Shown here in pieces: positions 8,932 through 63,484 of a DNA stretch of 64,000 nt. A model generated the notes under the pieces. It was given only the letters and a program-made list of their open reading frames with translations, was not told the DNA's origin and did no database searches. How positions within the stretch are numbered: the first letter of the stretch is position 1; each line of letters starts with the position of its first letter. Source of the stretch: a virus. Position numbers and translations under genes: made by a program. The stretch is from positions 1 through 64,000 of the IMG/VR virus record IMGVR_UViG_3300045988_142996, one strand, 5' to 3'.

Positions 8932-8934
8932 GTC

Positions 8935-11058: not shown

Positions 11059-11062
11059 GGTA

Positions 11063-14000
11063 TCACCTTGCCCTTCTTGCGGCTCTTGCGCCGAGCCCTG
11101 CATCAATCCACCCGATGGTGGTTTTGCCGTCCACTACCACGCTCATGCCGTGGATACTGTCCGCCACGCCGTCCATCCGTCCGCCCAGTGCGTTCACCGC
11201 GTTCAACAGGTCGGCATTGGACTGGGCTTTCACTCCATTTTGAAGTTCTGCCGCAGCATCCACCTGAGCCGCCAGACGTTTCGTTGTGCCGCCGTCCAGA
11301 CTGACATTGTCAAAGGCCCGGTTGATGATATCGGTGCTCTCGTCCACGTCGGTCAGGTCCACTACCGGGCTGATGGTGGGCGTGTACTCGTATTCATCAT
11401 CTGTCACCCGCTTGATGGCACCAACCGCAGCGATCGCAATATTCGTAGCATCGTCGGTCATGTCCTTGATGGCGTCGTCCACGGTGTCCTTGCCGTCGGT
11501 AATGCCGTCCGCAAAGTCCTTGTCAAGGTCAGAACCGGCGTCCTTTGCCGCGTCGGACTGCTTTTTATCCTTTGCATGCTTGATGGCAATGGCCGCAATG
11601 CCGCCCAGCAGCGCCAAAATGATGCCTCCCGCCAGAATAAAGGGCCAGATTTCCGGCAGCAGCCCGATCAGACTGCTGAATGCCCCGCCAATGGTTCCAA
11701 CCACGCCGGTTGCCACTTCAGAGATTCCGCCTGCTCCAGCCAGTAATCCGGTGATCTCGCCGCCTGCGTTCTGCACGATGCCTACGATCTGCCCAAAGCC
11801 CTGTTCCAATGCAGGCAGTGCTTTGTCAAAGAGCTGCCCGACGCCTTCCAGCATCTTCTTGCCCTCGTTGGTGCCCATAAAGTCCAGCGCCGCCGTCACA
11901 GCGGACACTGCCGCACCGGCCCAGTCTCCCTGCAGGGCCGAGACGATAGCTGAGGTGAACTCAGTTCCGATCTCAATGCCCTCGTCGCTGAAGGCCGCGC
12001 CAAATGCATTGGACAGGCCGGTCTTCACGTTTTCCGGCAGGTTCTGCGATGCCTTGTTCCATGCCTTGGTCAGACCCTCGCTCAGGGGTTTCCAGTTCTT
12101 CTGCACGGCATAGGCAAGTTTCACCACCATGGATTTGCCTTCATCTTCCAGATTAAAGGCCTCGGCCAGGTTGGATGCAAAGCCCAGGAAGGCGCTCTGG
12201 GAGGAGAGCAGGTTGTCCTGTGCGGCTTCTTTCTCCTCCCGGGTTGCATTCTCTGAGTTGAGGATCTCCTGATACTTCGCCGTCTCCTTGAGCTGGAAGT
12301 TCATGTTCTTCAGGGCCGTCACCACGCCCAGAATGGACGTCGTCGTGCCCTGGAACTGCGCCTTCTTTGCCTGCTCGCTGTCTTTGCCGTATTCCTCCAC
12401 GGCAGACTTGTAGGCATCCTCCCGCTGAGAGAGGTCGCCGTCGCTGTACACCGTGTTCAGGATGTCCATGCGGCTCTGCATCCGGCTCTGGGCAGTCGAA
12501 ATGGCATCGATCTGTGCGTCGATCAGGTTCAGTTCCTGCTGTGCCAGATCATTTTGAAGTTCCTGTGCCTCGGTGCGGGCGTCCAGCAGATCGTTCCAGG
12601 CTTCCATGGTGCGCATGTCTTCTTCGCCATACTGAGCCTTCAGGGCGTCATACTGCTCCTGCGCTTTGGCCAGCTTTTTCTCCTTGATGGCCAGTTCCGC
12701 CGTCATGTACTCGGTTTCCCGGTTGATCTTGTCGGTTTGGGTGGCTGTTTTGTCGTTCTGTGCCGTCCACAGGCCATATTCCTTTTCCAGCGTGTCGAGG
12801 TCGGTGTCGTAGCGCTTCGTCACGTCGTCAAAGAGGCCCACATACTGCTCTGCCTTCAGGTCGGCCAGACTGGTCTTTTCCTCCAGCAGGTCGAGGTAGG
12901 CCTCTTTGGTCTCGGTCTTATCCTTGCCCCAGCGCTTGGCCAGCTCGTCGTACTTCGCCTGTGCAATGGCCACCCGGTCGGTCTGGTGCTGGATGTCCGC
13001 TGCGGCATTCTCGGTCTTCTTGGCCAGCAGCTCGTCCACCGAGGCACTGTACTGGTTTTCCTTCAGCCACAGGTCGTACTCTTCGTCTACCGTGTCCTTC
13101 AGGGTCTTGTTGGCCGCCAGCTGGGTCTTGTACTTTTCCGTGATCTGTTCGGCTACGGTCTTCTGCTTGGTGGAAGATTTGGTTTTCTTCTTGCCCGTAC
13201 CGGTTCCGCCGGAGCCATCAGTGTTTCCAGAATCCGCATCAGGATTTTCCCGGTTTCCGTACAGCGACGTCCAGTCGAAGCCATCTGCTTTCTTTTTTGC
13301 AGGAATTGCGTTCAAACCGGAATCGCGAAGGTCCATCTGTAACTGGCGTCGTTCCTGCGGAGTCAGAGACGGATCATTTAGTGCATTGCTTAGCTCCTCC
13401 TGGAGACCTTCTTTATAGGCAGCACCAGTTCTCCTGCCAACATCTCTTGCTTCATCCTCAACATCTGATGCCTTATTTTCAAGTCCTTCGATTACGCCAC
13501 CATCGTAATACTCACCATTTTCGATTCCGTCATCTGCATTAGAATGGATACCAACTTCATCTCGGAAAGCATTGTCCATACTCCGAGCGAGAATGGACAT
13601 CGCCGTTTCTGCGGCAGGGGTTCCATTTTGAATTCCCTCAACAAGACCGCTGACAATGTAACCTGCATTTTCGATGGCAAGTCTAGCGGGAGAAGCAATC
13701 CCCCAATAGTCATTGAATGCATCATTTTGGGAATCAGCCAGCTCCTCAACAGCATCGACTGCTTTATCTCCTTCTTTTTCGATGCCTTTGGCGTAGCCTT
13801 CAGCGACATACTCGCCACTGCTTTGAGGATCAACACCATGTTCACTCTTGAATGCACTCTGAATCTTTTCGCCAATCCACTTGCCAAGCGCTCCGAATTT
13901 CGACCCGATATAATTGAATATTGAGCCAATAACAGAATCAATTGTTTCCAAAATCTTAGGAGTACAATTGATTAGCACATCGCACAAAGCATAAATCAGC

Positions 14001-20946: not shown

Positions 20947-22710
20947 TCAGGCAACCTTGTACTCGATGGCCATTGCGCTGAAGGGCACAGTCAGTGCGCC
21001 GGAGCAGCGGGTCTCGATCAGATACTTCTGCTGGTTGTAGTCGATGTCAAAGTCATCGAACATGTTCACGGCACCGCCCTTGTCAGCACCCACGGTGTAG
21101 TCGGTCAGGTTGACCACAATGCCAAACAGCTCGCCGCCCTTGGCACCCTTCAGGCCGGCCATCTGGGGCACGGTCACGATCTCCTTCACACGCATGGCCT
21201 GTGCAACCTCTGCCTCGTTCTTGTACAGGCGGTGGCCGATTTTGTCCTCCAGCAGGAGCATGTCGGTCAGGTTGTCCTCAGTGGTGAACAGGGTCGGGTT
21301 GCCGCTGCCCTTGTAGTCCTTGCGGGCCTTCAGGGAAGCATTCATGGCAGCCTTGATCTTGGTCTCGGTGTCTGCGCCGGAAGCGACCTGGGCCTCCACC
21401 TTGATGGTGTAGAAGTCGTCATCGCTCACAATGGGGCGGATGTTGCCCTCGTTGATCTTGTCATCGGAAGCAGCGTTGCGGCCATCGCCGATCAGGTAGG
21501 CACGAGCCAGCTCCTCGTTCAGCTTGGTGCGCATCTCCTGCTTCAGCCAGGCGATCACGTCAAAGCCGGTGATGTCTGCAATGTCATCGCGGTCCATCTT
21601 CTGCTTCTTGTAAACGGTGGTGGGGCTGGTGGAGCGCTTCAGCAGGCCGAACACCTGTTCCTTCTTGAAGTTGCCCTTGATGTAGCCCTTGGCGCGTGCG
21701 TCCTCCTCGGTCAGGTCAGCGGCCATGCTCTTGACGCGGCTGAAGGGAATATGGTGCACACCGCCCATGACCTTTGCGACCCAGCTCTGGTCGTTGTCAA
21801 TGATGCGGGGCGGGTTGTCCAGCAGGTGATCCTCCGGGAACAGCCATTCCACATCCTCGATGCCGTGGGCGATAAAGGCATCCTTCATACTGCCGCAGCG
21901 CTTGCCGTCTGCCATGGCAGCGTTGACCTCATCCATACTGTGCTTCAGCACGCCCTTCTCGTTGTCATTGTCGAAAACATTACGCTTCACGGTTTCTTCC
22001 TCCTTGTCTGTTTCTGCTGCATCGTCAGTGTCAGAGCCCTTGTTCTTCTTGGTTGCACCGATGATAGCGTAAACCACATTCTTCTGTTCATCAGTCATAC
22101 TGTCGAAGACTTCCTTAACGGTCTTCTCATTACCCTGATTTTCAGTAGCATCTGCCATTTTTTCTTCCTCCTTTTCGTCAGAATGAGTGATCTTTTCTCC
22201 CTCATCCAAAGGGTTGTCGTCCGGGTCCAGGCCATGGGTCAGGCTCAGACCACTGTCGGTATAGATCATGGCTTCGTAGCCATCATCTTCGTTGTAGTCG
22301 GCGCTGTGCTCCACGATCTCGTCGATCAGAGCACCCGGGTTGCATCCGGTCAGCACCAGACTCAGCTCCCGGATTACGCCATGCATCACCGTATTGCCGG
22401 CTTTCTTCAGGCCGTTTGCAAAGATGCTCATGGCATCAATGTCGCCGCAGCGCACCGCTTCCAGGGCCGTCTTGCCGCTTTTGGTGTCGTTCAGCTTCAC
22501 ATAGGCGTACACGCCATCCTTGCCGCGGTTCTGCAAAAGGGCATGGCCGAGTACATATTCCGGGCCGGAGTGATTGTGGTTCCACACCACGGGCACCTTC
22601 TTGCCGTTGTCGCCTGCAAAGGCGTTCGGCGCAATGGTCAGCCCGTCGTAGCACTTGGTGTTCGCCCTGGTCGCCCAGCCGGAAAAGTCATAGTCGAACG
22701 TCATATTCAT
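20947..22710 (-). CDS. Prohead protease (HK97/S78-type) fused to an acidic linker and an HK97-fold major capsid protein (587 aa)
   Basis: Protease N-domain: VPVVWNHNHSGPEYVLGHA...DAMSIFANG...IRELSLVLTGCNPGA. This is followed by an acidic, scaffold-like DE-rich linker. The capsid domain reads PFSRVKSMAADLTEEDARAKGY...FDVIAWLKQEMRTKLNEELARAYLIGDGR. Confidence 0.8.
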   Translation of the reverse strand: MNMTFDYDFSGWATRANTKCYDGLTIAPNAFAGDNGKKVPVVWNHNHSGPEYVLGHALLQNRGKDGVYAYVKLNDTKSGKTALEAVRCGDIDAMSIFANGLKKAGNTVMHGVIRELSLVLTGCNPGALIDEIVEHSADYNEDDGYEAMIYTDSGLSLTHGLDPDDNPLDEGEKITHSDEKEEEKMADATENQGNEKTVKEVFDSMTDEQKNVVYAIIGATKKNKGSDTDDAAETDKEEETVKRNVFDNDNEKGVLKHSMDEVNAAMADGKRCGSMKDAFIAHGIEDVEWLFPEDHLLDNPPRIIDNDQSWVAKVMGGVHHIPFSRVKSMAADLTEEDARAKGYIKGNFKKEQVFGLLKRSTSPTTVYKKQKMDRDDIADITGFDVIAWLKQEMRTKLNEELARAYLIGDGRNAASDDKINEGNIRPIVSDDDFYTIKVEAQVASGADTETKIKAAMNASLKARKDYKGSGNPTLFTTEDNLTDMLLLEDKIGHRLYKNEAEVAQAMRVKEIVTVPQMAGLKGAKGGELFGIVVNLTDYTVGADKGGAVNMFDDFDIDYNQQKYLIETRCSGALTVPFSAMAIEYKVA

Positions 22711-22761: not shown

Positions 22762-24030
22762 TCATATCCTGCTGGCCGCGGCCCGAGCCAGAAGCCGGTC
22801 CACCGTTTCCTTGCCGCCTGCCATGGCGGTATTCTGCGCCTCTTCCGGGCTCTGGTTCAGGTTCTTGTTGCTCAACTCATCCGCACGCGGGTCTTTCGAG
22901 GGCTTCAGCCCGATCACCTGCCGGAACTCGTTGGAGCTCATGATCTCGTTGCGGGTAAACTTGTCCGCCATCTCGGCCACCGTACCAATGGGTGCCAGCT
23001 TGAACGGGTCACGGAAGAACAGGATGCTCTGGCCTTGACTTCTTGCGGTCTTGGTCAGGAACTTCCGCTTCATCTCGTCCACGATCGCGCTGATGATAGG
23101 CTCCACGATGCGGTTGTAGTAGTTGGTCATCGCCGCCTCGTCCGCTGTCCCGTTCATGATCTCGATGGTAATACCCAATTGACTGTAAAACATGTTCGTC
23201 AGGTATTCGATCTGCTTCAGAAGGTTGTTTTCGAGGCTGCGATTCAACTGCGTCACCCGCTCGGTGCCGTCCGTCCACGCAATGCCGTATTTCGAGTCCC
23301 GGAGCTGCTCTTCGATCTCCCGCCGGCGCTTGTTTGCCTGCTCTCTGCGGGCTTCACTCTTCACCACATAGGGCAGCTGAATGATCAGGTCCAGCTTTCC
23401 GGCACCGGCCTGCTCGTCTACCACGTCCAGAAGGCTCAGCTTCCGGATCAGGCGCTGCATCGTGCTGTTCGGCTCGTTCATAATGGCGTAGAACGGGTTC
23501 TCGATCAGCGCCACGGTCTTTTTCGGCAGAACCAGTTCTTCCTTCTGGCCGGTCCGGTCGTTGTAAAGCCGCACCCGTACGTGTTCGGGGTACCATTCCA
23601 GCACCTTACCCACCCGCATGGAGTAGATCTTGTAGCCACTGCTCTTGCTGGGGTCGTAGTCCGCTTCCACCGGCACCACGGCCACCACACCCTCGTCCAG
23701 CATGCTCATCACAATGTCCTGAATGAGCCCCCGCCCGGTCTGGTCGATGTTGGCTTCTAAATTCAGGCAAGAATTAAGGCCCGAATCGATGACCGAATCA
23801 AACCGGCCATTGTCATCGAGCCTTACATGCTGTATCGTGATGGCGCTGCAGTCCATCGAAATGCGGTTGTATACGCTGGTCACAAAAGTGCGTTCGTTGC
23901 CACGCGTCAGCCGCACCCGGTCAGGCCGGTAGCTGTACCCGCCTGCATATCCTCCAAAGTTCGGGGGAGGGTCCCGGTTCAGAAAAGCGTTCCAGGCGTG
24001 CTTCAGCCGGGAACCAAGATTCATTTCCAT
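22762..24030 (-). CDS. Portal protein
   Basis: About 420 aa, lying upstream of the protease-capsid gene, with a portal-like sequence (YSYRPDRVRL...SVYNRISMDCSAI...). The start was set at MEMNLGS behind GAGGAAGGG. The track start at 24051 is a TTG. Confidence 0.75.
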   Translation of the reverse strand: MEMNLGSRLKHAWNAFLNRDPPPNFGGYAGGYSYRPDRVRLTRGNERTFVTSVYNRISMDCSAITIQHVRLDDNGRFDSVIDSGLNSCLNLEANIDQTGRGLIQDIVMSMLDEGVVAVVPVEADYDPSKSSGYKIYSMRVGKVLEWYPEHVRVRLYNDRTGQKEELVLPKKTVALIENPFYAIMNEPNSTMQRLIRKLSLLDVVDEQAGAGKLDLIIQLPYVVKSEARREQANKRRREIEEQLRDSKYGIAWTDGTERVTQLNRSLENNLLKQIEYLTNMFYSQLGITIEIMNGTADEAAMTNYYNRIVEPIISAIVDEMKRKFLTKTARSQGQSILFFRDPFKLAPIGTVAEMADKFTRNEIMSSNEFRQVIGLKPSKDPRADELSNKNLNQSPEEAQNTAMAGGKETVDRLLARAAASRI

Positions 24031-24065
24031 TTTGAATTTTCCCTTCCTCAAAAGCGCAGGAGTGG

Positions 24066-24524
24066 TTAAACCAGCATGCTACGATCATAGCGTTCGCTGG
24101 TTACTTTCATAACTGCCGAGATTGCTGTAGCGGCCATTCCTTTTTGAATCACTTGAGAATCAACAATGTTTTTTCCAATTTTTGTCACGGCTCCATAGTT
24201 ATTGTAGAGCGTATTGATGGTTCCAAGTGCCGTTGCTGCTGTTCCTGCAATCCCGATTGCCTGCTTAATCCTATCTGGTTTTGCAATCAAGGATTCATAC
24301 TGTTTTTCTTTTTGCAAACGGTTGATTTTTGCATTAAGCTCCGAATCGCTCAATTCTCTGACGCTCTTTTTCTCGTGTGCGTGGGTATAGTCAGGGTGGT
24401 CATTCTGCTGATATCTCTTTTTGCCTTCTGCTGTTAAGCTGCCATCCTTATTCTGATAGCGTCGGGCACCCCACTTCTGACCTTTGATGCCCCAATGATA
24501 AAGTTCATCATTATATATGGTCAT
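24066..24524 (-). CDS. Hypothetical protein with an N-terminal ELYHWGIKGQKWGARRYQ motif (152 aa)
   Basis: RBS AAAGGAGGTGG lies upstream of MTIYNDELYHWGIKGQKWGARR. The C-terminal part is Gly/Ala/Thr-rich and hydrophobic. Confidence 0.65.
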   Translation of the reverse strand: MTIYNDELYHWGIKGQKWGARRYQNKDGSLTAEGKKRYQQNDHPDYTHAHEKKSVRELSDSELNAKINRLQKEKQYESLIAKPDRIKQAIGIAGTAATALGTINTLYNNYGAVTKIGKNIVDSQVIQKGMAATAISAVMKVTSERYDRSMLV

Positions 24525-24593
24525 ATTCCACCTCCTTTGCCGATAAACAAAAAGCGCACCAGCAATGAAGCTGATGCGCTCTGTCAAAAGTAT

Positions 24594-24800
24594 TTACGGG
24601 ATAATATCCAAAATGGACTCGCACATTTTTCCGATTTCGTTCGGGAAATAATTGTCATCCAGACCTCGGTATTCAAGTTCGTCGCCGACCCGCTCTTCGA
24701 TATCCGCCCATTCATCAGAAAAATCATTGATTTTAGTATAATCGTAGTTGAGCCCCAAACTTCTTAAAAACTCAATCTGTTTCTCGGTAAGCATACTCAA
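24594..24800 (-). CDS. Small acidic protein (68 aa); candidate immunity/antitoxin for 24801..25289
   Basis: Its start abuts the stop of the upstream toxin-like gene with no gap. It is D/E-rich (DFSDEWADIEERVGDELEYRGLDDNYF). Confidence 0.45.
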   Translation of the reverse strand: MSMLTEKQIEFLRSLGLNYDYTKINDFSDEWADIEERVGDELEYRGLDDNYFPNEIGKMCESILDIIP

Positions 24801-25289
24801 TCACCTTTTCGTGTATTTTCGGATTGCGTCATGCCCTGTTTTCCAAACAGTTGTGATGCACCCGTTCTCTGGATTTACATTTACCGTTGCGTACTGTCCA
24901 ATGAATCGCTGGCTTGGCTGGCCTTTTTCATTGTAGCGTACTTTTATTTTATCAGCATTTAATGGCTTTTGCAATGCATCCAGCATACCGTCAAGAGTAA
25001 CCTGTCGTGTTTTATCCTGTGTGCGAGCCAAGGCATGAATCGAGAGTCCTTTTACAAGTACACCATTTGATGTATAGAACGGTTTTCGGAATTTCCGTGC
25101 CGCTCGAGCCTCAATTGAATACCGATCATGCTCAAGCTGCTCTTTCGTTCTCCGCACACCCCACTTCATACCCTTAATGCCGTAGTGCCACAGCTCTTGA
25201 GTACCATCAGTCCATCTCCACATTTGGTGGCATCCTCTTTCTATCTGTTCTATTGCGTTTGTAACCATCCACGTGTTATACTTATTCAA
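24801..25289 (-). CDS. Protein with a WHYGIKGMKWGVRR motif and a C-terminal RelE/BrnT/DUF4258-like toxin-type domain (162 aa)
   Basis: The C-terminus SIHALARTQDKTRQVTLDGMLDAL...FIGQYATVNVNPENGCITTVWKT follows the H-A-x-x-R ... ITT(V/Y) pattern of small RNase toxins. Confidence 0.45.
   Translation of the reverse strand: MNKYNTWMVTNAIEQIERGCHQMWRWTDGTQELWHYGIKGMKWGVRRTKEQLEHDRYSIEARAARKFRKPFYTSNGVLVKGLSIHALARTQDKTRQVTLDGMLDALQKPLNADKIKVRYNEKGQPSQRFIGQYATVNVNPENGCITTVWKTGHDAIRKYTKR
25253..25282 (+). promoter_or_regulatory. Sigma-A-like promoter for the plus-strand cassette
   Basis: TTGCGT (25253-58), an 18-nt spacer ending in TGT, then TATACT (25277-82), about 48 nt upstream of the ATG at 25330. 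Confidence 0.4.
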
Positions 25290-25329
25290 ACCACTTTTTG
25301 CGATTATTTAACTCGAGGAGGTTCAGATC

Positions 25330-26385
25330 ATGTCCGATTCCGAAATGCTTTCCACTCAGTCTTCCAGCTGCGAGATCACATTATGTGATATTCCACTGGA
25401 CTTCGGCGATGCAATGCGATTCCATAAAATTGAATTTCCTGAGCAAGCCGGACTTGCGGCCAACTTGCTTCTTCGGCTTGTTCCTGCTGAACTCGCAGTG
25501 GGGGCAGCATCGAGCACCTATGTTCTTCGGTTTCCAAAAGGTATTCAGGGTTCTCTTATGAACTTGCATCAGGGTGGACAGTCTACCGTTATGAAGGATG
25601 CTACCGGACATTTTGTAGGAACTGCATCGTTATATCGCACTGATCCGGTATCACTGGCAACTTTCCAGGTGTTTAGCATTGCATCTTTTGCGACAGGACA
25701 GTATTTTCTTGCAGACATCAGCTCAAAACTCACCGAAGTCAATAAGAAGCTAGATGACCTTCTTGCATTTCTGCAGACCTCAAAGCGCACAGAACTTCTC
25801 TCCGAGCTGACGTTTGTGAAATATGCATTGGCAAATTATTCAACGATTATGCTTAATGATGCTCAGTGCATTGCAACGATTGGAAATCTTCAGCGTGCAA
25901 AAACCAAAGCGATTGCTGATATAGAGTTTTATACCGAGCAGCTCGAGAGTGCAGTCGCTGGCAAGTCGAATGAGAGCCAAGCTCAAATTGTTTTGCAGAA
26001 TAAGCAGGGGGTTGATCTCGCCTCTCAACTTTATGCTATCAGCGGAATTATGGAAACCTACTATTCACAAAATTGGAACGAGTCCTATCTTGCAAATATC
26101 AAAGCGGATGCCAAACCTCTTTTCGCTCTTACGCAAAACCGCATGATTGGTGCTTTGAGAACATTCTCTGATAAGGTGACCAAAGAGCTTGAGGCCCGGA
26201 AGAAAAATCCTCTTACTAAAAACGAGGTTTCCAAAAAAGAGTGCGAAGTTCTGCGAGTATGTGACGCTCTAAATTCTCAAGCTGAATCTCCGCTTCTTAT
26301 TTTGATGACGGATGCTCTGAATAAGCCTTCAAGGGAAACAGAGCTTTATCTTCGTCCAGACGGTAGTGTCTACCAAAAGATTTAA
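25330..26385 (+). CDS. Unknown 351-aa protein (first gene of the opposite-strand accessory cassette)
   Basis: A strong RBS GAGGAGG-N7-ATG. The N-terminal third looks beta-rich and the C-terminal two thirds are long helices. No family recognised by eye. Confidence 0.85.
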   Translation: MSDSEMLSTQSSSCEITLCDIPLDFGDAMRFHKIEFPEQAGLAANLLLRLVPAELAVGAASSTYVLRFPKGIQGSLMNLHQGGQSTVMKDATGHFVGTASLYRTDPVSLATFQVFSIASFATGQYFLADISSKLTEVNKKLDDLLAFLQTSKRTELLSELTFVKYALANYSTIMLNDAQCIATIGNLQRAKTKAIADIEFYTEQLESAVAGKSNESQAQIVLQNKQGVDLASQLYAISGIMETYYSQNWNESYLANIKADAKPLFALTQNRMIGALRTFSDKVTKELEARKKNPLTKNEVSKKECEVLRVCDALNSQAESPLLILMTDALNKPSRETELYLRPDGSVYQKI

Positions 26386-26417
26386 TCATCGTGAGGAAAA
26401 ATAGAAAGGAGCATTTC

Positions 26418-26951
26418 ATGACTGTCGTTTGTCCCAGCTGCGGAAAGAAACTTCAAGTTCTCGATGACAAACCAACGAATGGAAAATGCGGAAGTTGCGG
26501 TGTCTCTTTCACCGTTGAGTACACGGCTGACGAAACCGCCATTGTTTCAGTCAAGACAGAAAAGACATTTTGGGAAAAACATCCTAAAATAGCTAAGGGC
26601 TTCGCAGCTGTATTGGGAGTTGGCTTTTTAGCCGGTGTGACTTGGCTTGCCGTCAAACCTAAAATCGACGAGTTCGCCAATGATTCTCCCATAGTAGAAG
26701 ACAATCAGTCTGATACAGCCCCCACTGCCACTTGCGTTGAAGTTAATAATGACAAGGCGCAGGATGATGCCACTTATGAGCAAAAAGAAATTCCTGTAAG
26801 CGGTGGCAAAGTGAAACTATCCGGAAATCGTCATGCATCTCAAAAGAAACGTGAAACAGCTGCTGAAAATGGTTATGCAGATTTAGCACCCGATGAAACC
26901 TGGCGTGTTCCGTCAACGAGGGTTATTGAAACCCCAGTCAAAGAATCTTGA
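26418..26951 (+). CDS. Zinc-ribbon protein with one TM helix (177 aa)
   Basis: CPSCGKK...CGSCG ribbon, TM segment GFAAVLGVGFLAGVTWLAV, and an acidic/polar tail. RBS AAAGGAG lies before the ATG at 26418 (the track start at 26391 is a GTG). Its stop abuts the TerL stop. Confidence 0.75.
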   Translation: MTVVCPSCGKKLQVLDDKPTNGKCGSCGVSFTVEYTADETAIVSVKTEKTFWEKHPKIAKGFAAVLGVGFLAGVTWLAVKPKIDEFANDSPIVEDNQSDTAPTATCVEVNNDKAQDDATYEQKEIPVSGGKVKLSGNRHASQKKRETAAENGYADLAPDETWRVPSTRVIETPVKES

Positions 26952-28697
26952 TCACTCAAACGCATCCCGGTTATTCTTATAAGCTACATACGCATCCATC
27001 ATAGCGGCAACCGCATCGATCTTCTGATCATACCTCTGTTTCAGAAGCTTGCGGTTGCCGTTTGTGTCTTCCAGGGTAATGCAGTTGCCCATAGCAAATT
27101 GCATCAGTTGCTCGTCAAACAGCAGTTTTCGCTGTTCGCTCAGCTTCTTCAGCTCGCCCAGCGGCACGCTCTCTGTCTTTGCGCCCTGGATCACCTTCTC
27201 GATGGCATACTCGCCGTTCTCTCTGGCCCATCGTTCCACAAAGTCCTTTGCGTTATAGGGGTCGTAGCCGAAAGACCGTACGTCGTACCCGCTGTTCTCG
27301 ATAAAGTGGTCAAGGTCGTCGTACACTTCCATCATGTCCAGCACGGTGCCTTCCAGCACCACAAGTGTTCCCTCCCGCATGAACTCGTCATACTTCTGCC
27401 GCATTGCAATGGGCAGCTTCGAGAGGGTGTAGCTCGTAATGTAGTCCCTCGTCTTCACGCCGAAATATCCGTGCTCCATCGGGAACAGGAAGGTAAACGC
27501 GCAAAAGTCGTCGCCCTGGCTGAGGTCTGCGCCCATGCTGCACGCCATCTGCCAGAAGTCCCGGTGCCGGTGCGGCAGGGTCTCCTCGTAGGGGAAGAAG
27601 TAGGTGTAACCCTCCATCGGGATGCCGAAGCGCTTTGCCAGGATGTCATTCCGGCTGGCAGGAGCCTTCTCGGCGCGTTCAACGTCCAGCTGGTAGGCTT
27701 CGTAGCTCACTGTGGCTCCCAGGTTCGGGTTCGCCTTCACCCACATGCTGGGGTCATTTACCTCGTCGATGCTGTCCAGCTTGTAGTACCAGATGGACAC
27801 ATGCGGGTTCACATAGTCGCCCTTCAGGATGCTCATCAATTCCATTTTGATGTCGTCACCGCAGCCGTTGCGCACCGTGCCCTCGCTGCTGGTGGCTACG
27901 ATCAGGTAATCCTCCACCTTGCAGCTACCCTGCTCGATAGCGCCAATGGGGTCTTCCCGGATGGGGCACGAGAGCCATTCATCCACTGTGGCCACCTTGT
28001 CTCTCCGTCCCTGCAGCTTGTCGATGCTCATGGGGCGGATTTCCAAAAGGCTGTTGGTCAGGAAGTTCTCGATGCCCTTCTTCGTGCTGGCCAGCTTCAC
28101 CCGCGCCGACTGGGAGCCGGTAGTGTTCTGCATGCTGCCTTCGGTCATAAAACGGTACAGCGGACCGCGGCTCCGCGCCAGTGCCGTGCGGATGGGGCTC
28201 AGCACCTCTTCCGCCTGCTTCATGGTGGGAGCCGTCGTGATCTGTTGCGTCGTGTGTCCGTCCACTGCAAGGAAGTATTGCTGGATGCAGCTGTCGTAGA
28301 TGCTCTTTGCCGCGCCTCGTGCCACGATCAGATACTGCTTGCGGACAAGGCGGTGCTTGATGCGCTTCTGGATGTACCTGCCGCCATGGCCGTCGGGGTT
28401 GGGCTTGTAGATGGTGCGTTCTTCAAAGTAGTACCATCCGAAGATTTCCTCCGCCCATAGCTTGAAGGTGTCCAGCAACTTCATGTCACTGCCGTCGGTC
28501 AGGGTCAGTTCCCGTTCACAGAACTTCACAAAGCCATCCATGGCCTTGTCGTCGTAGTAGATACCCGGATTTGCGATAAGATCATCGATCCGGTTCATCT
28601 CCATGGAGATTTCCCTGCAGACAGGAATTTCGCCTCGCAGCACGGCCTCCCGGAAACGGCCGTAATATTTTGGCGTAGCCGTGTTCGAGAGTGCCAT
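26952..28697 (-). CDS. Terminase large subunit
   Basis: A 581-aa protein with the Terminase_1-like layout: an ATPase region (YLIVARGAAKSIYDS) and a C-terminal nuclease region. It is the only terminase-sized ATPase in the genome. Confidence 0.8.
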   Translation of the reverse strand: MALSNTATPKYYGRFREAVLRGEIPVCREISMEMNRIDDLIANPGIYYDDKAMDGFVKFCERELTLTDGSDMKLLDTFKLWAEEIFGWYYFEERTIYKPNPDGHGGRYIQKRIKHRLVRKQYLIVARGAAKSIYDSCIQQYFLAVDGHTTQQITTAPTMKQAEEVLSPIRTALARSRGPLYRFMTEGSMQNTTGSQSARVKLASTKKGIENFLTNSLLEIRPMSIDKLQGRRDKVATVDEWLSCPIREDPIGAIEQGSCKVEDYLIVATSSEGTVRNGCGDDIKMELMSILKGDYVNPHVSIWYYKLDSIDEVNDPSMWVKANPNLGATVSYEAYQLDVERAEKAPASRNDILAKRFGIPMEGYTYFFPYEETLPHRHRDFWQMACSMGADLSQGDDFCAFTFLFPMEHGYFGVKTRDYITSYTLSKLPIAMRQKYDEFMREGTLVVLEGTVLDMMEVYDDLDHFIENSGYDVRSFGYDPYNAKDFVERWARENGEYAIEKVIQGAKTESVPLGELKKLSEQRKLLFDEQLMQFAMGNCITLEDTNGNRKLLKQRYDQKIDAVAAMMDAYVAYKNNRDAFE

Positions 28698-34065: not shown

Positions 34066-34266
34066 TCATTCCTCATGGTCCATTACACCTTCGGATGCAA
34101 TGGCTGCATTTGCCCAGAACAATGCCTCATCCAACTTCGTCAGCGCCAGACTGCGCTCACGGCTCGGTGCAATACACTGCACCATGTGTTCTGCCTCCTG
34201 CATCTTCAGCCGCAGGTTCGTGCTGTATGCTGCTTCCGCAACATTAAACTTTCGTACCGGATACAT
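34066..34266 (-). CDS. Hypothetical protein (66 aa)
   Basis: The start was set at MYPVRKF behind GGAGGAAATGAG. The sequence includes SLALTKLDEALFWANAAI. Confidence 0.45.
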   Translation of the reverse strand: MYPVRKFNVAEAAYSTNLRLKMQEAEHMVQCIAPSRERSLALTKLDEALFWANAAIASEGVMDHEE

Positions 34267-35750: not shown

Positions 35751-38513
35751 TTATTTCTTCAGTGCATCATAAATCGTGGATTTCGGAACATTACAGGCTT
35801 CAGCAACTTCGGCATAGCTGTAACCCATGTCAAGCATTGCTCGTGCTTTGCTCAATTTGGCATTAGAAAGCGTTGTCGATGCTTTCGGCATTGCGCGTTT
35901 GATGATTTCAGAAGAATCAGAACTGTTCAGAAACTTCGTCAACATCGAATCCGAAATTGCATGATTCTGAACAGCTTCCCATTCCTTGTCCGTAAAGACG
36001 ATCTTGGAGTTCCGACCGCTTGCACCAACAGAATCTCGTGCACGCTGCATCTCAACAGCAGAGATCTTCTTGATCTCTTTCTTGTCGGCTTTGCGATCAA
36101 GGCCTTGTGCTTCGATTTTTGCATTGATGTTGGCGTTTGCAATAATCATGGCACGCCGTTCTTTTGGCTTGTTGGTCAGAACTGCCTGATACTTTGCTTT
36201 CAAGGACTCAACCTCTGCCGCATACTTCTTGGCCGCTGCCGGATCACGCCGGATGCCCTTCATATTGACGGCTTCCTTGCGTGCCTGATTAGTCAGAGCC
36301 TTCAGGCCATTGGCAAAGTCTGCGTACAACTCCTCCTGCTTTGTGCCAGAGGACAAGGTATGGACATCTTTGATCATAGAGATGCGACTTACCTCATCTT
36401 CAGCCACATGCACATTACCCTTCTCGTCCTTGTAGGTACGGCCACTCTCCTTGTAGATGAGTTCGCCGGTCTCCTTGTCGATACGTGTGCTGCCACGACG
36501 CTCAGGAACACGGACGGTCTGCTTGCGACGGGACAGCAGCGTGGATGCACCACCGTACTTCGTATTGCCGTCTTCATCCACCCGGATCTGGTACTTCTGC
36601 TTCAGCTCCTGGATGCCGTTTTCACGCTCAGACCTCTTGTAGTCCAGGCCATGCTTCTCAGCATCAATGACAACCATAGAGTGGCGCACTGCTCGCTCCA
36701 GATCTTCTGGCGTTGCACCACGCAAGGTCATGTCCGTAATCAGGTTCGAGATAATTCCCATCTCTTTCTGCTTCTCATCCTTCTTCATGAGACGAACATT
36801 GTTGGGGTTGCCTTCCGGAACAGAGTAGGCAGTCTTGGGGTCGAAGTTCTTCAGACCAGGAAGCGGATTCGTTGAGTTGATACGAACCTTATCGCTCATC
36901 GGGATAGCCATAACGGTATCGCCATCAAAGTCTGCACCAGACAGCCGCTCTGCGACCTTCGCGTTGATGCCGATGGCGTCCTGAATCGCGCCCAAATTGC
37001 GCTTACCACTGAGGTTCTTGTTGTTGACAGTCACAACGGGAATCTCAAATGTGCCTGCATGCGGATAACGAATCAGTGCAAGCTGTGTTCCGTTCTCGTA
37101 TGTAGGGCAATAGGCTTCTTTCTCACTGATGTTATTCAGCGGAAGGATGACCTTCGTTGACTGACCGGGAAATGCAGACGCTTTCAGGGTCATGGACGTG
37201 CCTTCACACTGGTCAGCAAAGTCCATCAGCATTTTTTTCTTGACAGTCGGGTTCGTGTAATGCATGATCTCATCGTACTCGGCCTTATAGTCAGCCATAG
37301 TGAGGTCAAGCTGGCGTTTGATGAGCGGAACGGGCTGCTTGGACAGGAACTGCGAAGAAACATTCTTCGACATCGTGTCCCAGTCGCCTTCTTCTTTCAG
37401 CTTATTGATGGGAGAAAGATGCTCTTTGCCGTCGGCACCAATATAAGTGCTCTGGCCGTTCGCTTTGATGGCTGCACCGAACGGGTTATCCGGATCATCC
37501 TTGATGGGCTTGAAGACCTTCATCTTGGGTGTACCAGAAGGCTTATTGGTATTAAAGACAATATCAACACCCTTCGGCAGGTCATCAGAATATACGGCCA
37601 TGCCCTTCAGGTAGTGGCTGTCATCCACCATGATACGAACCTGCGCATAATGGGAATTGCCCAAATCCAAATCAGGAACGCCGCGGCGAATCTCCATAAC
37701 ACCGTCTTTTGCAAGGCCGCCTTCGTCGCCATAGCGCACCGCCACACGATCAGAGCTCATGCTCACAGGACGCTGTAGTTTTTTGAAGCTGTCTCCACCA
37801 TCGTCGGAATGATAGTCGCCAAGGGACTGAATCTCACTCTGATGCTTGTAGGCATAGCTCTGATCGAACTCAGGCTTGCCCAGAACGGTGATATTTGTCT
37901 GCTGACGAGGATTGGTCGGCTGCTTGATGCCGACACCATAGCGCTTATAGCCGTATTCCGCTTCCAGAATATAAACAGCCTCATCCAGCTTGCCTTCCGA
38001 GACGCCAAGCGTAAGGTTGGAACCTTCGGAAATATCAATCATGCCTTTCTTGTCAACTTCCTTCTTCAGGACGTCAGCAATCTTTTCAGCCTGATCTTTC
38101 TTGGTTCCAACGCCATTCTGGTACATGGAGCGGACCGTCGATTCGGACAGGTTCAACTTCTGGCCGATTTCAGTCCAGCCTTTGCCATCTTCTTTCAGTG
38201 CACGAATCTGATCCCACTGCAGCGCTTTACGGTCATGGCCGGCTTTGGCTCTTGCCACACGAAACTCGCTGGCACCCAGCTTGTACTCATCGGGCAGAGT
38301 CGCATTGATGGCCTCAAGGATCTCATTTTCACTCATGCCCTGAGTCTTCAGCTTATCGATTCGAGAAATAAAATCGCCCGAATGCTGGTAAGGCGTCTCG
38401 CCACTACCCCAGGGATAACGGCCAGAATGACGCTTGGTGCCGTAATGCTCCAGCGTATCGCCGCCGTATTCAATACCAAAATAGCTCGAAATATCTTTTT
38501 CAACTGGATTCAT
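35751..38513 (-). CDS. 920-aa protein with a two-barrel RNA-polymerase-type catalytic signature (YonO/RdRP-like?) and HTH domains
   Basis: LALIRYPHAGTFEIP...AERLSGADFDGDTVMAIPM. The DFDGD is at nt 36918-36932, verified by hand. There are two HTH-like segments and an N-terminal HYGTKRHSGRYPWGSG motif. Confidence 0.5.
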   Translation of the reverse strand: MNPVEKDISSYFGIEYGGDTLEHYGTKRHSGRYPWGSGETPYQHSGDFISRIDKLKTQGMSENEILEAINATLPDEYKLGASEFRVARAKAGHDRKALQWDQIRALKEDGKGWTEIGQKLNLSESTVRSMYQNGVGTKKDQAEKIADVLKKEVDKKGMIDISEGSNLTLGVSEGKLDEAVYILEAEYGYKRYGVGIKQPTNPRQQTNITVLGKPEFDQSYAYKHQSEIQSLGDYHSDDGGDSFKKLQRPVSMSSDRVAVRYGDEGGLAKDGVMEIRRGVPDLDLGNSHYAQVRIMVDDSHYLKGMAVYSDDLPKGVDIVFNTNKPSGTPKMKVFKPIKDDPDNPFGAAIKANGQSTYIGADGKEHLSPINKLKEEGDWDTMSKNVSSQFLSKQPVPLIKRQLDLTMADYKAEYDEIMHYTNPTVKKKMLMDFADQCEGTSMTLKASAFPGQSTKVILPLNNISEKEAYCPTYENGTQLALIRYPHAGTFEIPVVTVNNKNLSGKRNLGAIQDAIGINAKVAERLSGADFDGDTVMAIPMSDKVRINSTNPLPGLKNFDPKTAYSVPEGNPNNVRLMKKDEKQKEMGIISNLITDMTLRGATPEDLERAVRHSMVVIDAEKHGLDYKRSERENGIQELKQKYQIRVDEDGNTKYGGASTLLSRRKQTVRVPERRGSTRIDKETGELIYKESGRTYKDEKGNVHVAEDEVSRISMIKDVHTLSSGTKQEELYADFANGLKALTNQARKEAVNMKGIRRDPAAAKKYAAEVESLKAKYQAVLTNKPKERRAMIIANANINAKIEAQGLDRKADKKEIKKISAVEMQRARDSVGASGRNSKIVFTDKEWEAVQNHAISDSMLTKFLNSSDSSEIIKRAMPKASTTLSNAKLSKARAMLDMGYSYAEVAEACNVPKSTIYDALKK

Positions 38514-38514
38514 G

Positions 38515-39069
38515 TCAGCACCCCATCTTCAGCTTTGCAATAATCGGATCAAACTCACGGATCTTCTCCATCACAACGTTGACATCATCCGCCTCAGGTG
38601 TGGCGATAATAATATCATCAGACTGATAGATGCGATTCTCGATCTGAATTTTCTCCGGCTTCACACGATATTCCAGACAGAACAGAGCATCGTAAATCAG
38701 CAGCTGTTCCATATGCGCCGGAATCACCCCCGTTTTAAGGTCGTGGATCCGAAGAATATCATCGCGGAAACAAATCGAGTCTGCTGTCCCAAAGCAATTC
38801 TCAGAATAATAGAGCACCTGCTCAGGGGTCATGCGGAATCCAATGGCGTCGTTGACATAACTGTTCAACGTCTTCTTCGAGCGCGGCAGCTTCTGGCCAA
38901 GAGAAATGCACTTTGCTGCAAACTCGTGCAGTTCGGTGCCTTTCTGCGCAGCCATGAAGCTGGTATAGGCCGCTGCAATTTTCTCGGGATCGTAATTGAT
39001 CCAATGATACTTACTAGCGCCGAGAAATGCGTGTTGGCCTGTCAGACGCGAATGATCGTTGAAGGTCAT
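38515..39069 (-). CDS. PD-(D/E)XK nuclease (DUF2800/Cas4-like, without a Cys cluster)
   Basis: GASKYH..., GTELHEF, GTADSICF...LRIHDLKTGVIPAHMEQLLIYDAL matches D...(D/E)xK plus the QxxxY pattern. Confidence 0.6.
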   Translation of the reverse strand: MTFNDHSRLTGQHAFLGASKYHWINYDPEKIAAAYTSFMAAQKGTELHEFAAKCISLGQKLPRSKKTLNSYVNDAIGFRMTPEQVLYYSENCFGTADSICFRDDILRIHDLKTGVIPAHMEQLLIYDALFCLEYRVKPEKIQIENRIYQSDDIIIATPEADDVNVVMEKIREFDPIIAKLKMGC

Positions 39070-39331
39070 CCAAAATCTCCTCCTTATTTTCCGGGTAAAT
39101 GAACGCAGCGTAGCTCATCCGGTTCATGAGATCAACGTAGTAATCTTGATTCGGACGATGCGGTGCATTTGCAGAGCGTTTGCCTTCAAGCGCTGCCCAC
39201 TTGTCTCCGCACAAAACCAAGAGATCAGGCATTCCCTGAATCTCGTTTGGATCAATGTGCAGAACAATGCAGCCCGGAAAGCGCTCTTTGAGTTCTCTTA
39301 CCAGGTTTGTTTTGAATCGGTTCTCCAGCAT
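39014..39331 (-). CDS. VRR-NUC-type nuclease
   Basis: GMPDLLVLCGDKWAALEGKR (PD...ExK). The start was set at MLENRF behind GGAGGAG. Confidence 0.65.
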   Translation of the reverse strand: MLENRFKTNLVRELKERFPGCIVLHIDPNEIQGMPDLLVLCGDKWAALEGKRSANAPHRPNQDYYVDLMNRMSYAAFIYPENKEEILDDLQRSFASDRPTRISRR

Positions 39332-39384
39332 AAAATCTCCTCCAAAAAGAAAAAGAGCAGCGTGCAAAGACACACTCTCTCCTC

Positions 39385-39413
39385 TTCATAAAAGAGCATG
39401 TATTTTACGCGTT
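39385..39413 (-). promoter_or_regulatory. Class-1 promoter-like motif, copy L (variant CGCGTAAAAT)
   Basis: Minus strand reads AACGCGTAAAATACATGCTCTTTTATGAAGAGG. Confidence 0.4.
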
Positions 39414-39419
39414 TGTTTT

Positions 39420-39445
39420 TGTCGGTAGATGTCGGTTTTTGTCGG
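39420..39445. repeat. Three TGTCGG direct repeats at an exact 10-bp period (0A-box-like)
   Basis: tgtcgg occurs at 39420, 39430 and 39440. The third reads TTTGTCGGAA, one mismatch from the extended Spo0A box TTTGTCGAAA. Confidence 0.6.
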
Positions 39446-39454
39446 AAAACTTGC

Positions 39455-39484
39455 AAAAGAAAAAGACGCAGATTGCTCTGCGTC
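39455..39484 (-). terminator. Rho-independent terminator
   Basis: Minus strand reads GACGCAG-AGCAAT-CTGCGTC followed by TTTTTCTTTT. Confidence 0.7.
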
Positions 39485-39507
39485 TTCGTCGTGTTTATTT
39501 GAGAATA

Positions 39508-39870
39508 TCAATCCTCATGGGTATGTTCTGCATAGAAATAGTACCAATCCGGAACACCAGCCAGAAGCCGTCTTCCATCATCGTACTCAAACTTACCGTA
39601 GTCTTCGTTCAGTTCAAGGTTAGCGGACTCGTATTCATCAAGCTCGATGACCTGATCGATTTCGTCCTCCGTTTTCGTGATGTTGCAGGGCGGACAAGCC
39701 CAATATCCGGGAACTTCTTCTATCATGTTTCGTCCGCAGGTGCACACCGGAACCTTTGTGTGAATCTCGCGGTACCGGTTCGCATAACAGTGGACAACAT
39801 TCCCTGCTGCATCAGTGGTGGTCCATTCTTCAAAGCCATTGTCATTGATAAAGCGGTCCATGTAAGCCAT
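39508..39870 (-). CDS. Hypothetical Cys-rich protein (120 aa)
   Basis: It contains VPVCTCGRNMIEEVPGYWACPPCN and an acidic C-terminus. Confidence 0.55.
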   Translation of the reverse strand: MAYMDRFINDNGFEEWTTTDAAGNVVHCYANRYREIHTKVPVCTCGRNMIEEVPGYWACPPCNITKTEDEIDQVIELDEYESANLELNEDYGKFEYDDGRRLLAGVPDWYYFYAEHTHED

Positions 39871-39918
39871 CTTTACTACCTCATAAGCATCTAATCGGTG
39901 TGTGCATCATTTAAATCA

Positions 39919-39947
39919 AGTATACAACGCTGGTTGGGTTCTTACAA
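39919..39947 (-). promoter_or_regulatory. Sigma-A-like promoter for the 39870-to-35460 operon
   Basis: Minus strand reads TTGTAA (39947-39942), a 17-nt spacer, then TATACT (39924-39919), about 48 nt upstream of the ATG at 39870. Confidence 0.5.
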
Positions 39948-40002
39948 GATTTTCGCCTTGAACTTTTCGTTAATTTGGGTCGTTTTTCGTCTCTGCCCAA
40001 AA

Positions 40003-40301
40003 GCCCACTTTTATTTTCTACTTATATATATTTTTTTCATTTTTAATAAATAAATAAGAAAAAAAGTGGGCAAGTGGGCAAAATGGCTTTTTCTTCCAAA
40101 AATATAACGTATTTACGCAATATTTTATCCAAAATTCGTGCCCACTTTTGGTTTTAAAAGTGGGCAGAAAGTGGGCTTTTGGCCAGAAATTGTGAATATT
40201 TTGTGAACAAACGGTCATTTTCGTCTATTCTAGAATAGAATTTCACGTCTCTGACACACAAAACCCAAAACAAAAGTGGGCACGAATTTCAAAAGTGGGC
40301 A
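40003..40301. repeat. Iteron array: at least 8 copies of (A)AGTGGGC(A) in both orientations in an AT-rich, non-coding 440 bp
   Basis: Copies lie at 40003-10 (reverse), 40065-72, 40073-80, 40139-48 (reverse), 40157-66, 40168-77, 40272-82 and 40291-301. Confidence 0.85.
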
Positions 40302-40336
40302 AAAGAAAAAGGCCCTGAATTTTACTCCAGAGCCTT
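40301..40336 (-). terminator. Rho-independent terminator
   Basis: Minus strand reads AAGGCTCTG-N10-CAGGGCCTT followed by TTTCTTTT, directly after the stop of 40343..40690. Confidence 0.65.
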
Positions 40337-40342
40337 TATTAT

Positions 40343-40690
40343 TTATTCGCCGCGCCATTCCATGATGATATTGGATGGGTGACTATAATAGCCTTTATTT
40401 TTCCCTTCCGTTTGAAAGGTAATACTAGCATATCCCTTTGCTGGATAGTAGCGGTAGGAGTCGACATAGCCCTCCATGATAAGGTTTCCCCCGGGAGTAT
40501 AAAGCCAGGCATAATATGGAGATTGTTTTCCAGAATCGCAGAAGAACCCATTGTCCTCCAGCATTCCCCAGGATGTTATTGTTCCGTTTGTCGCTTCATC
40601 CAAAACGTCCACGGTTTCCGCATAACAAGGAACTGTCACGGAAAACATTAGGAGCGCTGCGATTACGGCCACCATAATATTCTTTTTCAT
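40343..40690 (-). CDS. Secreted protein with a signal peptide (115 aa)
   Basis: MKKNIMVAVIAALLMFSVTVPCYA-ETVD is signal-peptide-like. RBS AAAAAGGAGGG. Confidence 0.6.
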   Translation of the reverse strand: MKKNIMVAVIAALLMFSVTVPCYAETVDVLDEATNGTITSWGMLEDNGFFCDSGKQSPYYAWLYTPGGNLIMEGYVDSYRYYPAKGYASITFQTEGKNKGYYSHPSNIIMEWRGE

Positions 40691-40758
40691 TAAACGTCCC
40701 TCCTTTTTGTCTAAAAATAACATAAATTCTAACTGCTGTCAATGCCAATTTTCATCAG

Positions 40759-41097: not shown

Positions 41098-41106
41098 ATC
41101 ACCACC

Positions 41107-41298
41107 TCACAGATGAATCACACAGGCCGTCAGAGCCGAGCAGCCAAGCATGACAATGATCCAGAAAATATCTTTCGGATGCACAATGATATGTACTTCT
41201 CCATCGATTTTCCTGAGATGAGTGCCGATTTTAAATCCCATACTGAGTCCATGCCAGTAGAGACAGCACATCAAAGCAAAGAGTAGAAATCTCATCAT
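41107..41298 (-). CDS. Small membrane protein (63 aa)
   Basis: Two hydrophobic segments. It is translationally coupled to its neighbours. Confidence 0.5.
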   Translation of the reverse strand: MMRFLLFALMCCLYWHGLSMGFKIGTHLRKIDGEVHIIVHPKDIFWIIVMLGCSALTACVIHL

Positions 41299-63432: not shown

Positions 63433-63484
63433 TTTTCTCCAGAGCCTGAGTTAAACCTAAGAACAACTTAGCTGGCGCAGCGAA

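Follow-up and report, generated by a model that had tools for sequence, protein, structure and literature searches.

What are two genes doing between the portal and terminase genes of a temperate phage, on the strand opposite to the late genes? We addressed this question for IMG/VR record IMGVR_UViG_3300045988_142996, positions 1 to 64,000, a stretch of 64,000 nucleotides (nt) hereafter called the window. One of the two genes encodes a protein of 351 amino acids (aa), X351, and the other a 177-aa zinc-ribbon/transmembrane (TM) protein, ZnR. An earlier reading of the letters alone (the sequence-only reading) had taken them for a candidate two-gene cassette for defence or superinfection exclusion, pairing a soluble sensor with a membrane zinc-ribbon effector. 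Comparison with relatives gives a different picture. X351 is a candidate single-gene defence moron that probably has an immunity function (we put the probability at about 0.6), while ZnR is best described as a rare, independent and separately acquired membrane-anchored cargo. The earlier reading was right in kind for one gene, as a prophage moron and candidate defence, and wrong in architecture. The features on which the argument turns are the following.

22762..24051, minus strand: portal protein (Pfam Phage_portal; phrog_12, E = 5e-43), the left boundary of the hotspot
25253..25282, plus strand: sigma-A-type promoter, with a -35 element TTGCGT at 25253-25258, an 18-nt spacer, TG at 25274-25275 (extended -10) and a -10 element TATACT at 25277-25282
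25315-25321, plus strand: ribosome-binding site (RBS) of X351, GAGGAGG, 8 nt before the ATG at 25330 and invariant in all aligned relatives
25330..26385, plus strand: X351, 351 aa, candidate single-gene anti-phage immunity protein of a large unannotated family
26405-26411, plus strand: RBS of ZnR, AAAGGAG, before the ATG at 26418
26418..26951, plus strand: ZnR, 177-aa zinc-ribbon/TM protein, with CxxC at residues 5-8 and 23-26, a TM helix at about 61-83 and a 90-residue tail
26952..28697, minus strand: terminase large subunit, TerL (Pfam TerL_nuclease, E = 1.6e-36; phrog_9, E = 7e-108), the right boundary of the hotspot

Plus-strand genes and their promoter

Both open reading frames (ORFs) lie where the sequence-only reading had placed them, each behind a strong RBS, and the stop codon of ZnR (TGA, 26949-26951) abuts that of TerL (26952-26954). 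They evolve under purifying selection, with ratios of nonsynonymous to synonymous substitutions (dN/dS) of 0.07-0.08 for X351 and 0.11-0.16 for ZnR. The TTGCGT-18-TATACT promoter is also present as claimed, and the TG in its spacer adds an extended -10 element. A generic promoter scan made no call at 25253-25282 because the -35 element matches at only three of six positions. Support for the promoter comes from its conservation, since the -35, the spacing and the -10 are kept in eight relatives, whose X351 proteins are 48-87% identical, despite diverged flanks. Two loci with different cargo retain elements of it as well, L011 the same architecture and L014 an extended -10 (TGCTATAAT). Starting the divergently transcribed DUF7211 gene at the ATG at 25223, as in the closely related locus L198, places the promoter in a true intergenic region of 106 nt.

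A cargo slot between portal and TerL

The G+C content (GC) is 0.41-0.46 across positions 24000-27000 and 0.56-0.60 in the flanks. The cassette had been described as AT-rich, and a GC window bears this out for the cassette region (0.42-0.46), but its extent had been drawn too narrowly. The low-GC island is about 3 kb long and holds five genes, three on the minus strand (a 68-aa acidic ORF flanked by two genes for DUF7211-motif proteins) and X351 and ZnR on the plus strand. The two plus-strand genes account for just half of what varies here.

The gene content of the island varies among relatives whose TerL proteins are 78-95% identical. The nearest relatives of the window by TerL and portal (91-95% identity) do not have X351 and carry other cargo in the slot. 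Five cargo combinations were observed between portal and TerL: X351 with ZnR; X351 alone, with TerL directly downstream (L001-10, L022-27 and gp68 of FP_oengus, X351 48-87% identical); X351 with an unrelated 66-aa TM protein (L036); a 168-aa protein with an N-terminal TM segment, followed by ZnR (L011); and two tandem zinc-ribbon/TM proteins (L014 7239-7985 and 8001-8546). The first of these L014 proteins, of 248 aa, had been cut to 102 aa in the automatic gene call.

The TerL-portal junction is thus an accessory-gene hotspot with a resident promoter and exchangeable cargo. X351 is polymorphic at this junction and not conserved in all relatives. Together with the opposite strand, the conserved promoter of its own and the atypical GC, this presence/absence polymorphism upholds the proposal that the genes are moron-type accessory cargo and not a virion or assembly module; we are highly confident that X351 is accessory cargo that does not belong to the head module. 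Because the upstream partner of ZnR differs between loci, relatives of X351 occur without ZnR and the closest relatives of the phage have no X351, the locus is a cargo slot in which the combination of X351 and ZnR is recent.

Genomic contexts of the X351 family

The family to which X351 belongs is large. A word search returned 86 clusters of homologs, and an exhaustive profile search 1,670 clusters at 50% identity (270 at E ≤ 1e-30), nearly all of them full length, at 340-380 aa. A third search, again by profile, yielded no new distant, context-rich proteins. The named hosts are Faecalibacterium, Lawsonibacter, Ruminococcus, Ruthenibacterium and Subdoligranulum.

We surveyed 185 loci, which reduce to 69 lineages at 90% identity, and classified the neighbours of X351. 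In 10 lineages the gene adjoins TerL and invariably runs against the late genes. A second phage hotspot accounts for 33 lineages, with X351 just upstream of, and co-directional with, a conserved gene pair for a 185-aa DUF2800-like protein and a helix-turn-helix (HTH) protein of about 900 aa. The window has such a pair (184 and 920 aa) at 35751-39069 on the minus strand, and the slot upstream of it, corresponding to the second hotspot, spans about 39070-41500.

X351 is also embedded in defence operons. Two BREX (bacteriophage exclusion) loci, L028 and L031, have the order BrxB-BrxC-X351-PglX. In L090 and related loci, X351 stands between HsdR and HsdM-HsdS of a type I restriction-modification (R-M) system and overlaps hsdR by 4 nt; L070, a member of this hsdR-X351-hsdM group, has Septu PtuAB downstream. 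An association with type I R-M was found in at least five lineages. Elsewhere X351 lies upstream of HsdR/S/M (L106), adjoins McrBC (L098), occurs in the orders HTH_26-X351-GmrSD_N-HEPN (L061) and, beside a relaxase, HTH-X351-HEPN (L051), has NERD nucleases nearby (L089 and L071), or shares an island with a kinase/NB-ARC STAND protein and AAA_21 (L018). Solitary chromosomal copies among housekeeping genes were found as well, and, in a prophage setting, a repressor of the cI/LexA type stands beside X351 in one lineage (L112), seen in 14 loci. No conserved partner of X351 was found across the 69 lineages, and insertions often consist of this gene alone, as in the hsdR-hsdM and brxC-pglX intervals. 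The defence proposal therefore gains support for X351 alone, through its embedding in R-M and BREX operons and its defence neighbours, and fails for the paired system.

A metagenome sample that had not been pre-selected as viral contained 31 X351 lineages. Phages carried 15 of them; nine of the other 16 lay within three genes of known defence genes, and the rest were solitary or on short contigs.

On mobilisable elements, which carry Mob_Pre-type relaxases or a serine recombinase, a gene for an HTH_26 (Xre-type) protein of 66-88 aa precedes X351 (L061, L069, L051, L067 and L106). It overlaps the start of X351 by 4 nt in L061 (942-2251) and L069 (142-1448), a layout resembling that of a toxin-antitoxin (TA) module or a dedicated regulator. 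A related small HTH gene also precedes the BREX operon of L028.

A degraded prophage (L006, L008 and L010, about 7000-11700), next to the host genes pfkA and a dnaE-like gene, has lost the capsid gene and upstream modules and keeps only the first ~73 codons of the portal gene. It retains TerL, a DUF7211 gene and an X351 protein identical to that of the intact phages L007 and L009.

Predicted structure and variability of X351

The sequence-only reading could name no family for the 351-aa protein, and neither could we: X351 and 60 diverse members of its family gave nothing significant in Pfam, PHROGs, PADLOC or NCBIfam. Among the 60 members, PADLOC returned only five scattered single matches, at E = 2e-3 or weaker. 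A match to Vip3A_N (E = 0.019) was judged to be noise, as were the matches of two of the 60 members to CorA. Searches of the PDB by sequence, with a single query and with a profile, found nothing below E = 0.1.

AlphaFold2 models of X351 were built with 38 sequences (mean predicted local distance difference test score, pLDDT, 67.5) and then with 60 diverse sequences (pLDDT 79.5; predicted TM-score, pTM, 0.77), the second of them a confident model. X351 is predicted to consist of a small beta domain (about residues 15-101), a very long helix (107-145) with a hydrophobic first half that bears the most conserved motif of the family, S-x-A-T-G-Q-Y-F, a helical bundle (151-334) and a C-terminal beta hairpin (337-350). 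No TM segment was detected in X351 (maximum Kyte-Doolittle score, KD19, 1.50). The models were compared by Foldseek with the PDB twice and with BFVD once; a match to "Jumbo phage Killer B" (E = 0.48) was rejected as non-significant, and the lone BFVD match is another uncharacterised siphovirus protein.

The protein does not vary evenly along its length. Within the phage clade, the mean pairwise identity is 37% over residues 251-335 as opposed to 62-69% in the core. Alleles that are otherwise close have exchanged this segment as a module: core identity is 94% for P0006, but identity in the segment falls to 56%, and for P0030 and P0033 the figures are 72-73% and 27%. Such hypervariability with shuffling suggests an arms-race signature. 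The window allele has a further peculiarity, a Cys at codon 180 (25867-25869), in a Q-R-x-A-T motif whose Arg is kept by at least 90% of the family. The 99%-identical relative P0001 has the same residue, so that Cys180 reflects a variant of this lineage and no sequencing error.

ZnR and alternative explanations

The description of ZnR as a CxxC...CxxC protein with one TM helix was accurate; the predicted helix has a KD score of 1.99. The last ~55 of the 90 tail residues are conserved. Among 5.8 billion proteins, ZnR homologs form only three clusters, and all of them abut the TerL stop codon. The upstream neighbour differs: it is the 168-aa protein with the N-terminal TM segment in L011, the 248-aa zinc-ribbon/TM/ectodomain protein in L014, and X351 in L198 and L199. 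X351 and ZnR occur together only in the latter two, which are 96-98% identical to the window in DNA, and the notion of a conserved sensor-effector cassette does not survive this restriction to near-identical copies of one phage. Pfam, PHROGs and PADLOC gave only weak generic zinc-ribbon matches for ZnR, and no homology to a characterised superinfection-exclusion (Sie) protein was seen; a PADLOC check, which had been suggested as a way to identify the cassette, produced no model matching either protein. Judged from its sequence, ZnR has the layout expected of a superinfection-exclusion protein, being small, anchored by one predicted TM helix and placed behind a conserved cargo promoter. By analogy, a role in superinfection exclusion or surface conversion is plausible.

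If X351 and ZnR were nevertheless one abortive-infection system, with a soluble sensor and a membrane effector, their spacing of 32 nt on one strand behind one promoter would be explained, and a small CxxC..CxxC protein does follow the X351 homolog in 9 of the 69 lineages (e.g., L032, L039 and L181). However, ZnR has three clusters to the 1,670 of X351, its relatives have other partners while those of X351 do without it, and X351 is inserted alone in R-M and BREX operons. The CxxC neighbours have no TM helix, showed no BLAST similarity to ZnR in locus-wide searches and lie on either side of X351, and they were rejected as ZnR relatives for these reasons; the 66-aa ORF after X351 in L036 was likewise rejected as a ZnR remnant, as it shows no similarity. 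Co-occurrence largely refutes the two-gene model, which we consider highly unlikely. For scanning, the lesson is a negative one: two genes that adjoin in one genome suggested a system that comparison with other genomes does not bear out. Scarcely credible is a function of X351 as a virion, assembly or packaging accessory, such as a coiled-coil scaffold or a terminase cofactor. Its persistence in the TerL-adjacent slot of 10 lineages, including the isolate FP_oengus, would agree with such a function, as might the predicted long helical architecture, but the gene there always opposes the late operon under its own promoter, is missing from the closest TerL/portal relatives, recurs in R-M/BREX operons and chromosomal loci devoid of phage genes, and belongs to no PHROG structural family.

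Two other explanations take account of the mobility of X351. It might be a counter-defence protein or modulator, that is, a restriction-alleviation or regulatory subunit with which phages and mobile elements tune R-M/BREX-type immunity. The family is mostly phage-borne, its links are specifically with systems based on methylation (type I R-M, BREX and McrBC), and the same phage carries an Acb2/Tad1-like anti-defence gene. Yet an inhibitor translationally coupled inside a host hsdR-hsdM or brxC-pglX operon would be self-defeating, X351 is also found near unrelated defence types (HEPN, NERD, STAND and Septu) and alone on chromosomes, and it has neither a DNA-mimic-like acidic composition nor a DNA-binding domain; this explanation is quite improbable. 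Alternatively, X351 might be a moron that serves itself or the fitness of the host and has nothing to do with phage defence, either a lysogenic-conversion factor or an addiction module of the toxin type to which an Xre HTH protein sometimes supplies the antitoxin; on this view, which we regard as unlikely, it would gather in hotspots and defence islands only because insertions are tolerated there. The 4-nt overlap of HTH_26 and X351 on mobilisable elements is a typical type II TA layout, solitary copies sit among housekeeping genes, and no defence hidden Markov model matches. Most X351 copies, however, have no HTH gene, and the embedding of the gene inside operons, not merely beside them, together with the shuffled segment, fits an antagonistic interface better. 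As many TA-like modules are themselves abortive-infection defences, this last explanation overlaps with an immunity function.

Several points weigh against that function all the same. The case for defence is one of strong guilt by association, but co-location by itself does not establish function. For the context survey, ORFs were called by a crude procedure and compared with a limited set of reference proteins, and 3 of the 31 lineages in the metagenome sample were on contigs too short to classify. About half of the X351 lineages are phage-borne, and the largest phage group is co-directional with the neighbouring phage genes; in that group X351 could instead benefit the phage. The degraded prophage keeps TerL as well, so the retention of X351 there is weak evidence. 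A mechanistic anchor is missing: PADLOC-DB v2.0.0 has no match for X351 itself, NCBIfam (June 2026) and Pfam 2025 have no model and PHROGs no family. Nor is there a structural analogue, as Foldseek with both models found no PDB entry at E ≤ 1e-3, only generic helical bundles. Finally, the window allele might be impaired by the Cys at the nearly invariant Arg180.

Proposed role of X351

With these points taken into account, X351 still fits the pattern of a mobile module for defence that a prophage carries as a moron, since a single gene hops between contexts, contains a hypervariable shuffled segment and stands behind a constitutive-looking promoter. We infer that it is expressed in the lysogen and acts against phages. 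The conserved sigma-A-type promoter would fire against the late operon and drive whichever exchangeable cargo occupies the slot. X351 is a stand-alone module, found inserted in phage hotspots, in operons for type I R-M and BREX and in the defence islands of mobilisable elements. Most likely it would protect the lysogen from competing phages or from invading DNA of other kinds.

As to mechanism, only a weak and speculative guess can be offered. The shuffled helices 251-335 would be the likeliest specificity or sensor surface, and the conserved, partly hydrophobic helix (107-131, S-x-ATGQYF) might form the effector part together with the bundle. The effector might act through a conformational switch to bind and block a phage component, or through abortive-infection membrane damage. 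In a more far-reaching version, which is quite unlikely, X351 would be the founder of a non-enzymatic, single-protein immunity family that backs up restriction-type defence by a logic like that of PrrC or PARIS. Latent at first, it would be triggered when a phage counter-measure or component engaged helices 251-335, whereupon the hydrophobic helix and the bundle would arrest the cell or block phage DNA handling; Oengus-like phages would spread it between Faecalibacterium strains as a weapon against their competitors.

Comparison with known systems

The defence hotspot of P2-like prophages lies beside cos, with gpA on one side and the portal gene gpQ on the other, and the cargo of the P2/P4 hotspots includes old, tin and PARIS (Rousset et al. 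2022, PMC9122126). The slot described here is similar in being variable, lying by packaging genes and holding short, exchangeable and mostly uncharacterised cargo that is also found outside phages; protection of the lysogen is known for P2/P4. It differs in host (Firmicutes/Oscillospiraceae), phage type and position, between TerL and portal, in its conserved outward promoter and in sharing an island with DUF7211 toxin-like genes. No cargo protein of the window is homologous to the P2/P4 hotspot systems in PADLOC. What is new is the unannotated family; its arrangement is of a kind already well known.

Genes embedded in type I R-M or BREX operons have turned out to be defence modules, as with TgvAB in a type I R-M locus of Vibrio cholerae, BrxU in BREX and Hma-embedded candidates (10.1101/2024.04.04.588119), and PrrC is embedded in the type I R-M system EcoprrI (PMC1484252). 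X351 resembles them as an extra ORF inside an R-M or BREX operon, the very placement by which they were recognised. Unlike PrrC and RloC, it has no ABC-type NTPase or anticodon-nuclease domain in Pfam, NCBIfam or PADLOC, so that only the operon position is shared. It also differs from the embedded systems in having no GmrSD (DUF262/DUF1524) or other enzymatic domain, in its predicted beta domain and helical bundle, and in being mostly phage-borne.

PARIS is an anti-anti-restriction abortive-infection system of two genes, the ABC ATPase AriA and the TOPRIM nuclease AriB. X351 shares with it the prophage/satellite hotspots and the association with restriction, and by analogy might form a second line behind restriction, but it is a single gene and has no PADLOC match to AriA or AriB; matches to unrelated PADLOC models came from only one of the 60 family members, at E about 1e-3. 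That X351 would sense anti-restriction proteins is pure conjecture.

Classical moron or superinfection-exclusion genes adjoin the lysogeny switch (lambda rexAB/sieB type; lactococcal membrane proteins of the Sie2009 type). Similar to these are the position of one X351 lineage beside a cI/LexA-type repressor and the make-up of ZnR and its alternative partners, which are small, membrane-anchored and behind a prophage promoter. Neither X351 nor ZnR has any sequence or family relation to Sie or Rex proteins in PHROGs, Pfam or PADLOC, and the locus is in the head-packaging module and not in the immunity region.

X351 bears a weak likeness to proteins of the CorA type, in which an N-terminal mixed beta domain is likewise followed by very long helices. 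Two of the 60 family members match Pfam CorA (best E = 2e-4), and the first structural model gave low-score Foldseek matches to CorA and MRS2. We rejected this relationship, as the Foldseek E-values were at least 0.2, the TM-scores were 0.12-0.19, the matches disappeared with the better model, and X351 has neither the GMN motif nor C-terminal TM helices.

The minus-strand genes of the island and the phage backbone

The remainder of the island is made up of three minus-strand genes; the plus strand carries two further supported genes, far from the island.

135-1310, plus strand: IS110 transposase (Pfam)
4228-5472, plus strand: integrase (Pfam)
24066..24587, minus strand: second DUF7211-motif protein, 173 aa (152 aa from an internal ATG) (Pfam DUF7211; phrog_32444)
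24594..24800, minus strand: 68-aa acidic, immunity-like protein (net charge -11), directly downstream of the DUF7211 gene
24801..25289, minus strand: DUF7211-motif protein (Pfam DUF7211, E = 1.9e-10), basic (+14), divergent from the cargo promoter; the L198 gene call points to the ATG at 25223 as its probable true start (140 aa)

The two DUF7211 proteins of the window combine a short N-terminal motif (W/YGIKGMKWGVRR) with variable basic C-terminal parts (net +11 and +14). In L001-5, the equivalent of the 24801..25289 gene carries Ntox50, and in L001 a 59-aa ORF follows it (L001 6286-7916). Relatives have one to four copies of DUF7211/Ntox50-type genes. These sequences give the minus-strand genes of the island the appearance of a polymorphic toxin/immunity array lying between TerL and portal, with products that might be packaged into the capsid or ejected from it. 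We considered whether X351 is the immunity protein of the DUF7211/Ntox50 toxins and rejected the idea. X351 is conserved while the toxin C termini vary, the small acidic ORFs directly 3' of the toxin genes are better candidates, and X351 occurs without DUF7211 genes in R-M/BREX loci.

Positions 1-1878 and 62123-64000 of the window are identical over 1,878 bases, giving a period of 62,122 bp, and the window appears to be a circular or circularly permuted sequence of 62.1 kb wrapped to 64 kb. The IS110 transposase ORFs at 135-1310 and 62257-63432 are one gene inside the duplicated end, not two. The phage is a temperate siphophage of the Faecalibacterium/Oscillospiraceae type, Oengus-like, with Faecalibacterium phage FP_oengus as its closest cultured relative. 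As the sequence-only reading had noted, only the integrase and the IS110 transposase accompany X351 and ZnR as supported plus-strand genes; the other long plus-strand ORFs were tested and had no family support. A 587-aa head protein (20947-22710, minus strand) has weak matches to Peptidase_S78 (prohead protease) and Phage_capsid within a single ORF and is an apparent fusion of protease and major capsid protein, as also annotated for gp71 of FP_oengus. A 66-aa ORF at 34069-34266 (minus strand) is 100% identical to an L198 gene of the Pfam family Acb2_Tad1_hairpin, which has the fold of anti-CBASS/anti-Thoeris sponges. The phage therefore probably carries an anti-defence gene of the Acb2/Tad1 type besides its candidate defence cargo.

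Significance

To our knowledge, almost no defence systems have been validated in the dominant gut Clostridia, and phage-host dynamics there are poorly understood. If the X351 family confers immunity, it would be a widespread defence module with an unclassified fold; the family comprises at least 1,670 clusters at 50% identity and is specific to these dominant Clostridia of the human gut. Oengus-type temperate gut phages have been reported in up to 40% of human viromes. The locus is of interest mainly for offering a well-supported, testable defence candidate in a prevalent phage lineage of the human gut. Both cargo slots, the promoter-equipped one between TerL and portal and the one upstream of the 184/920-aa pair, could be mined for more cargo, as the P2/P4 hotspots have been. 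Were the immunity function true, carriage by Oengus-like prophages would make X351 a determinant of which phages infect Faecalibacterium prausnitzii, a key commensal.

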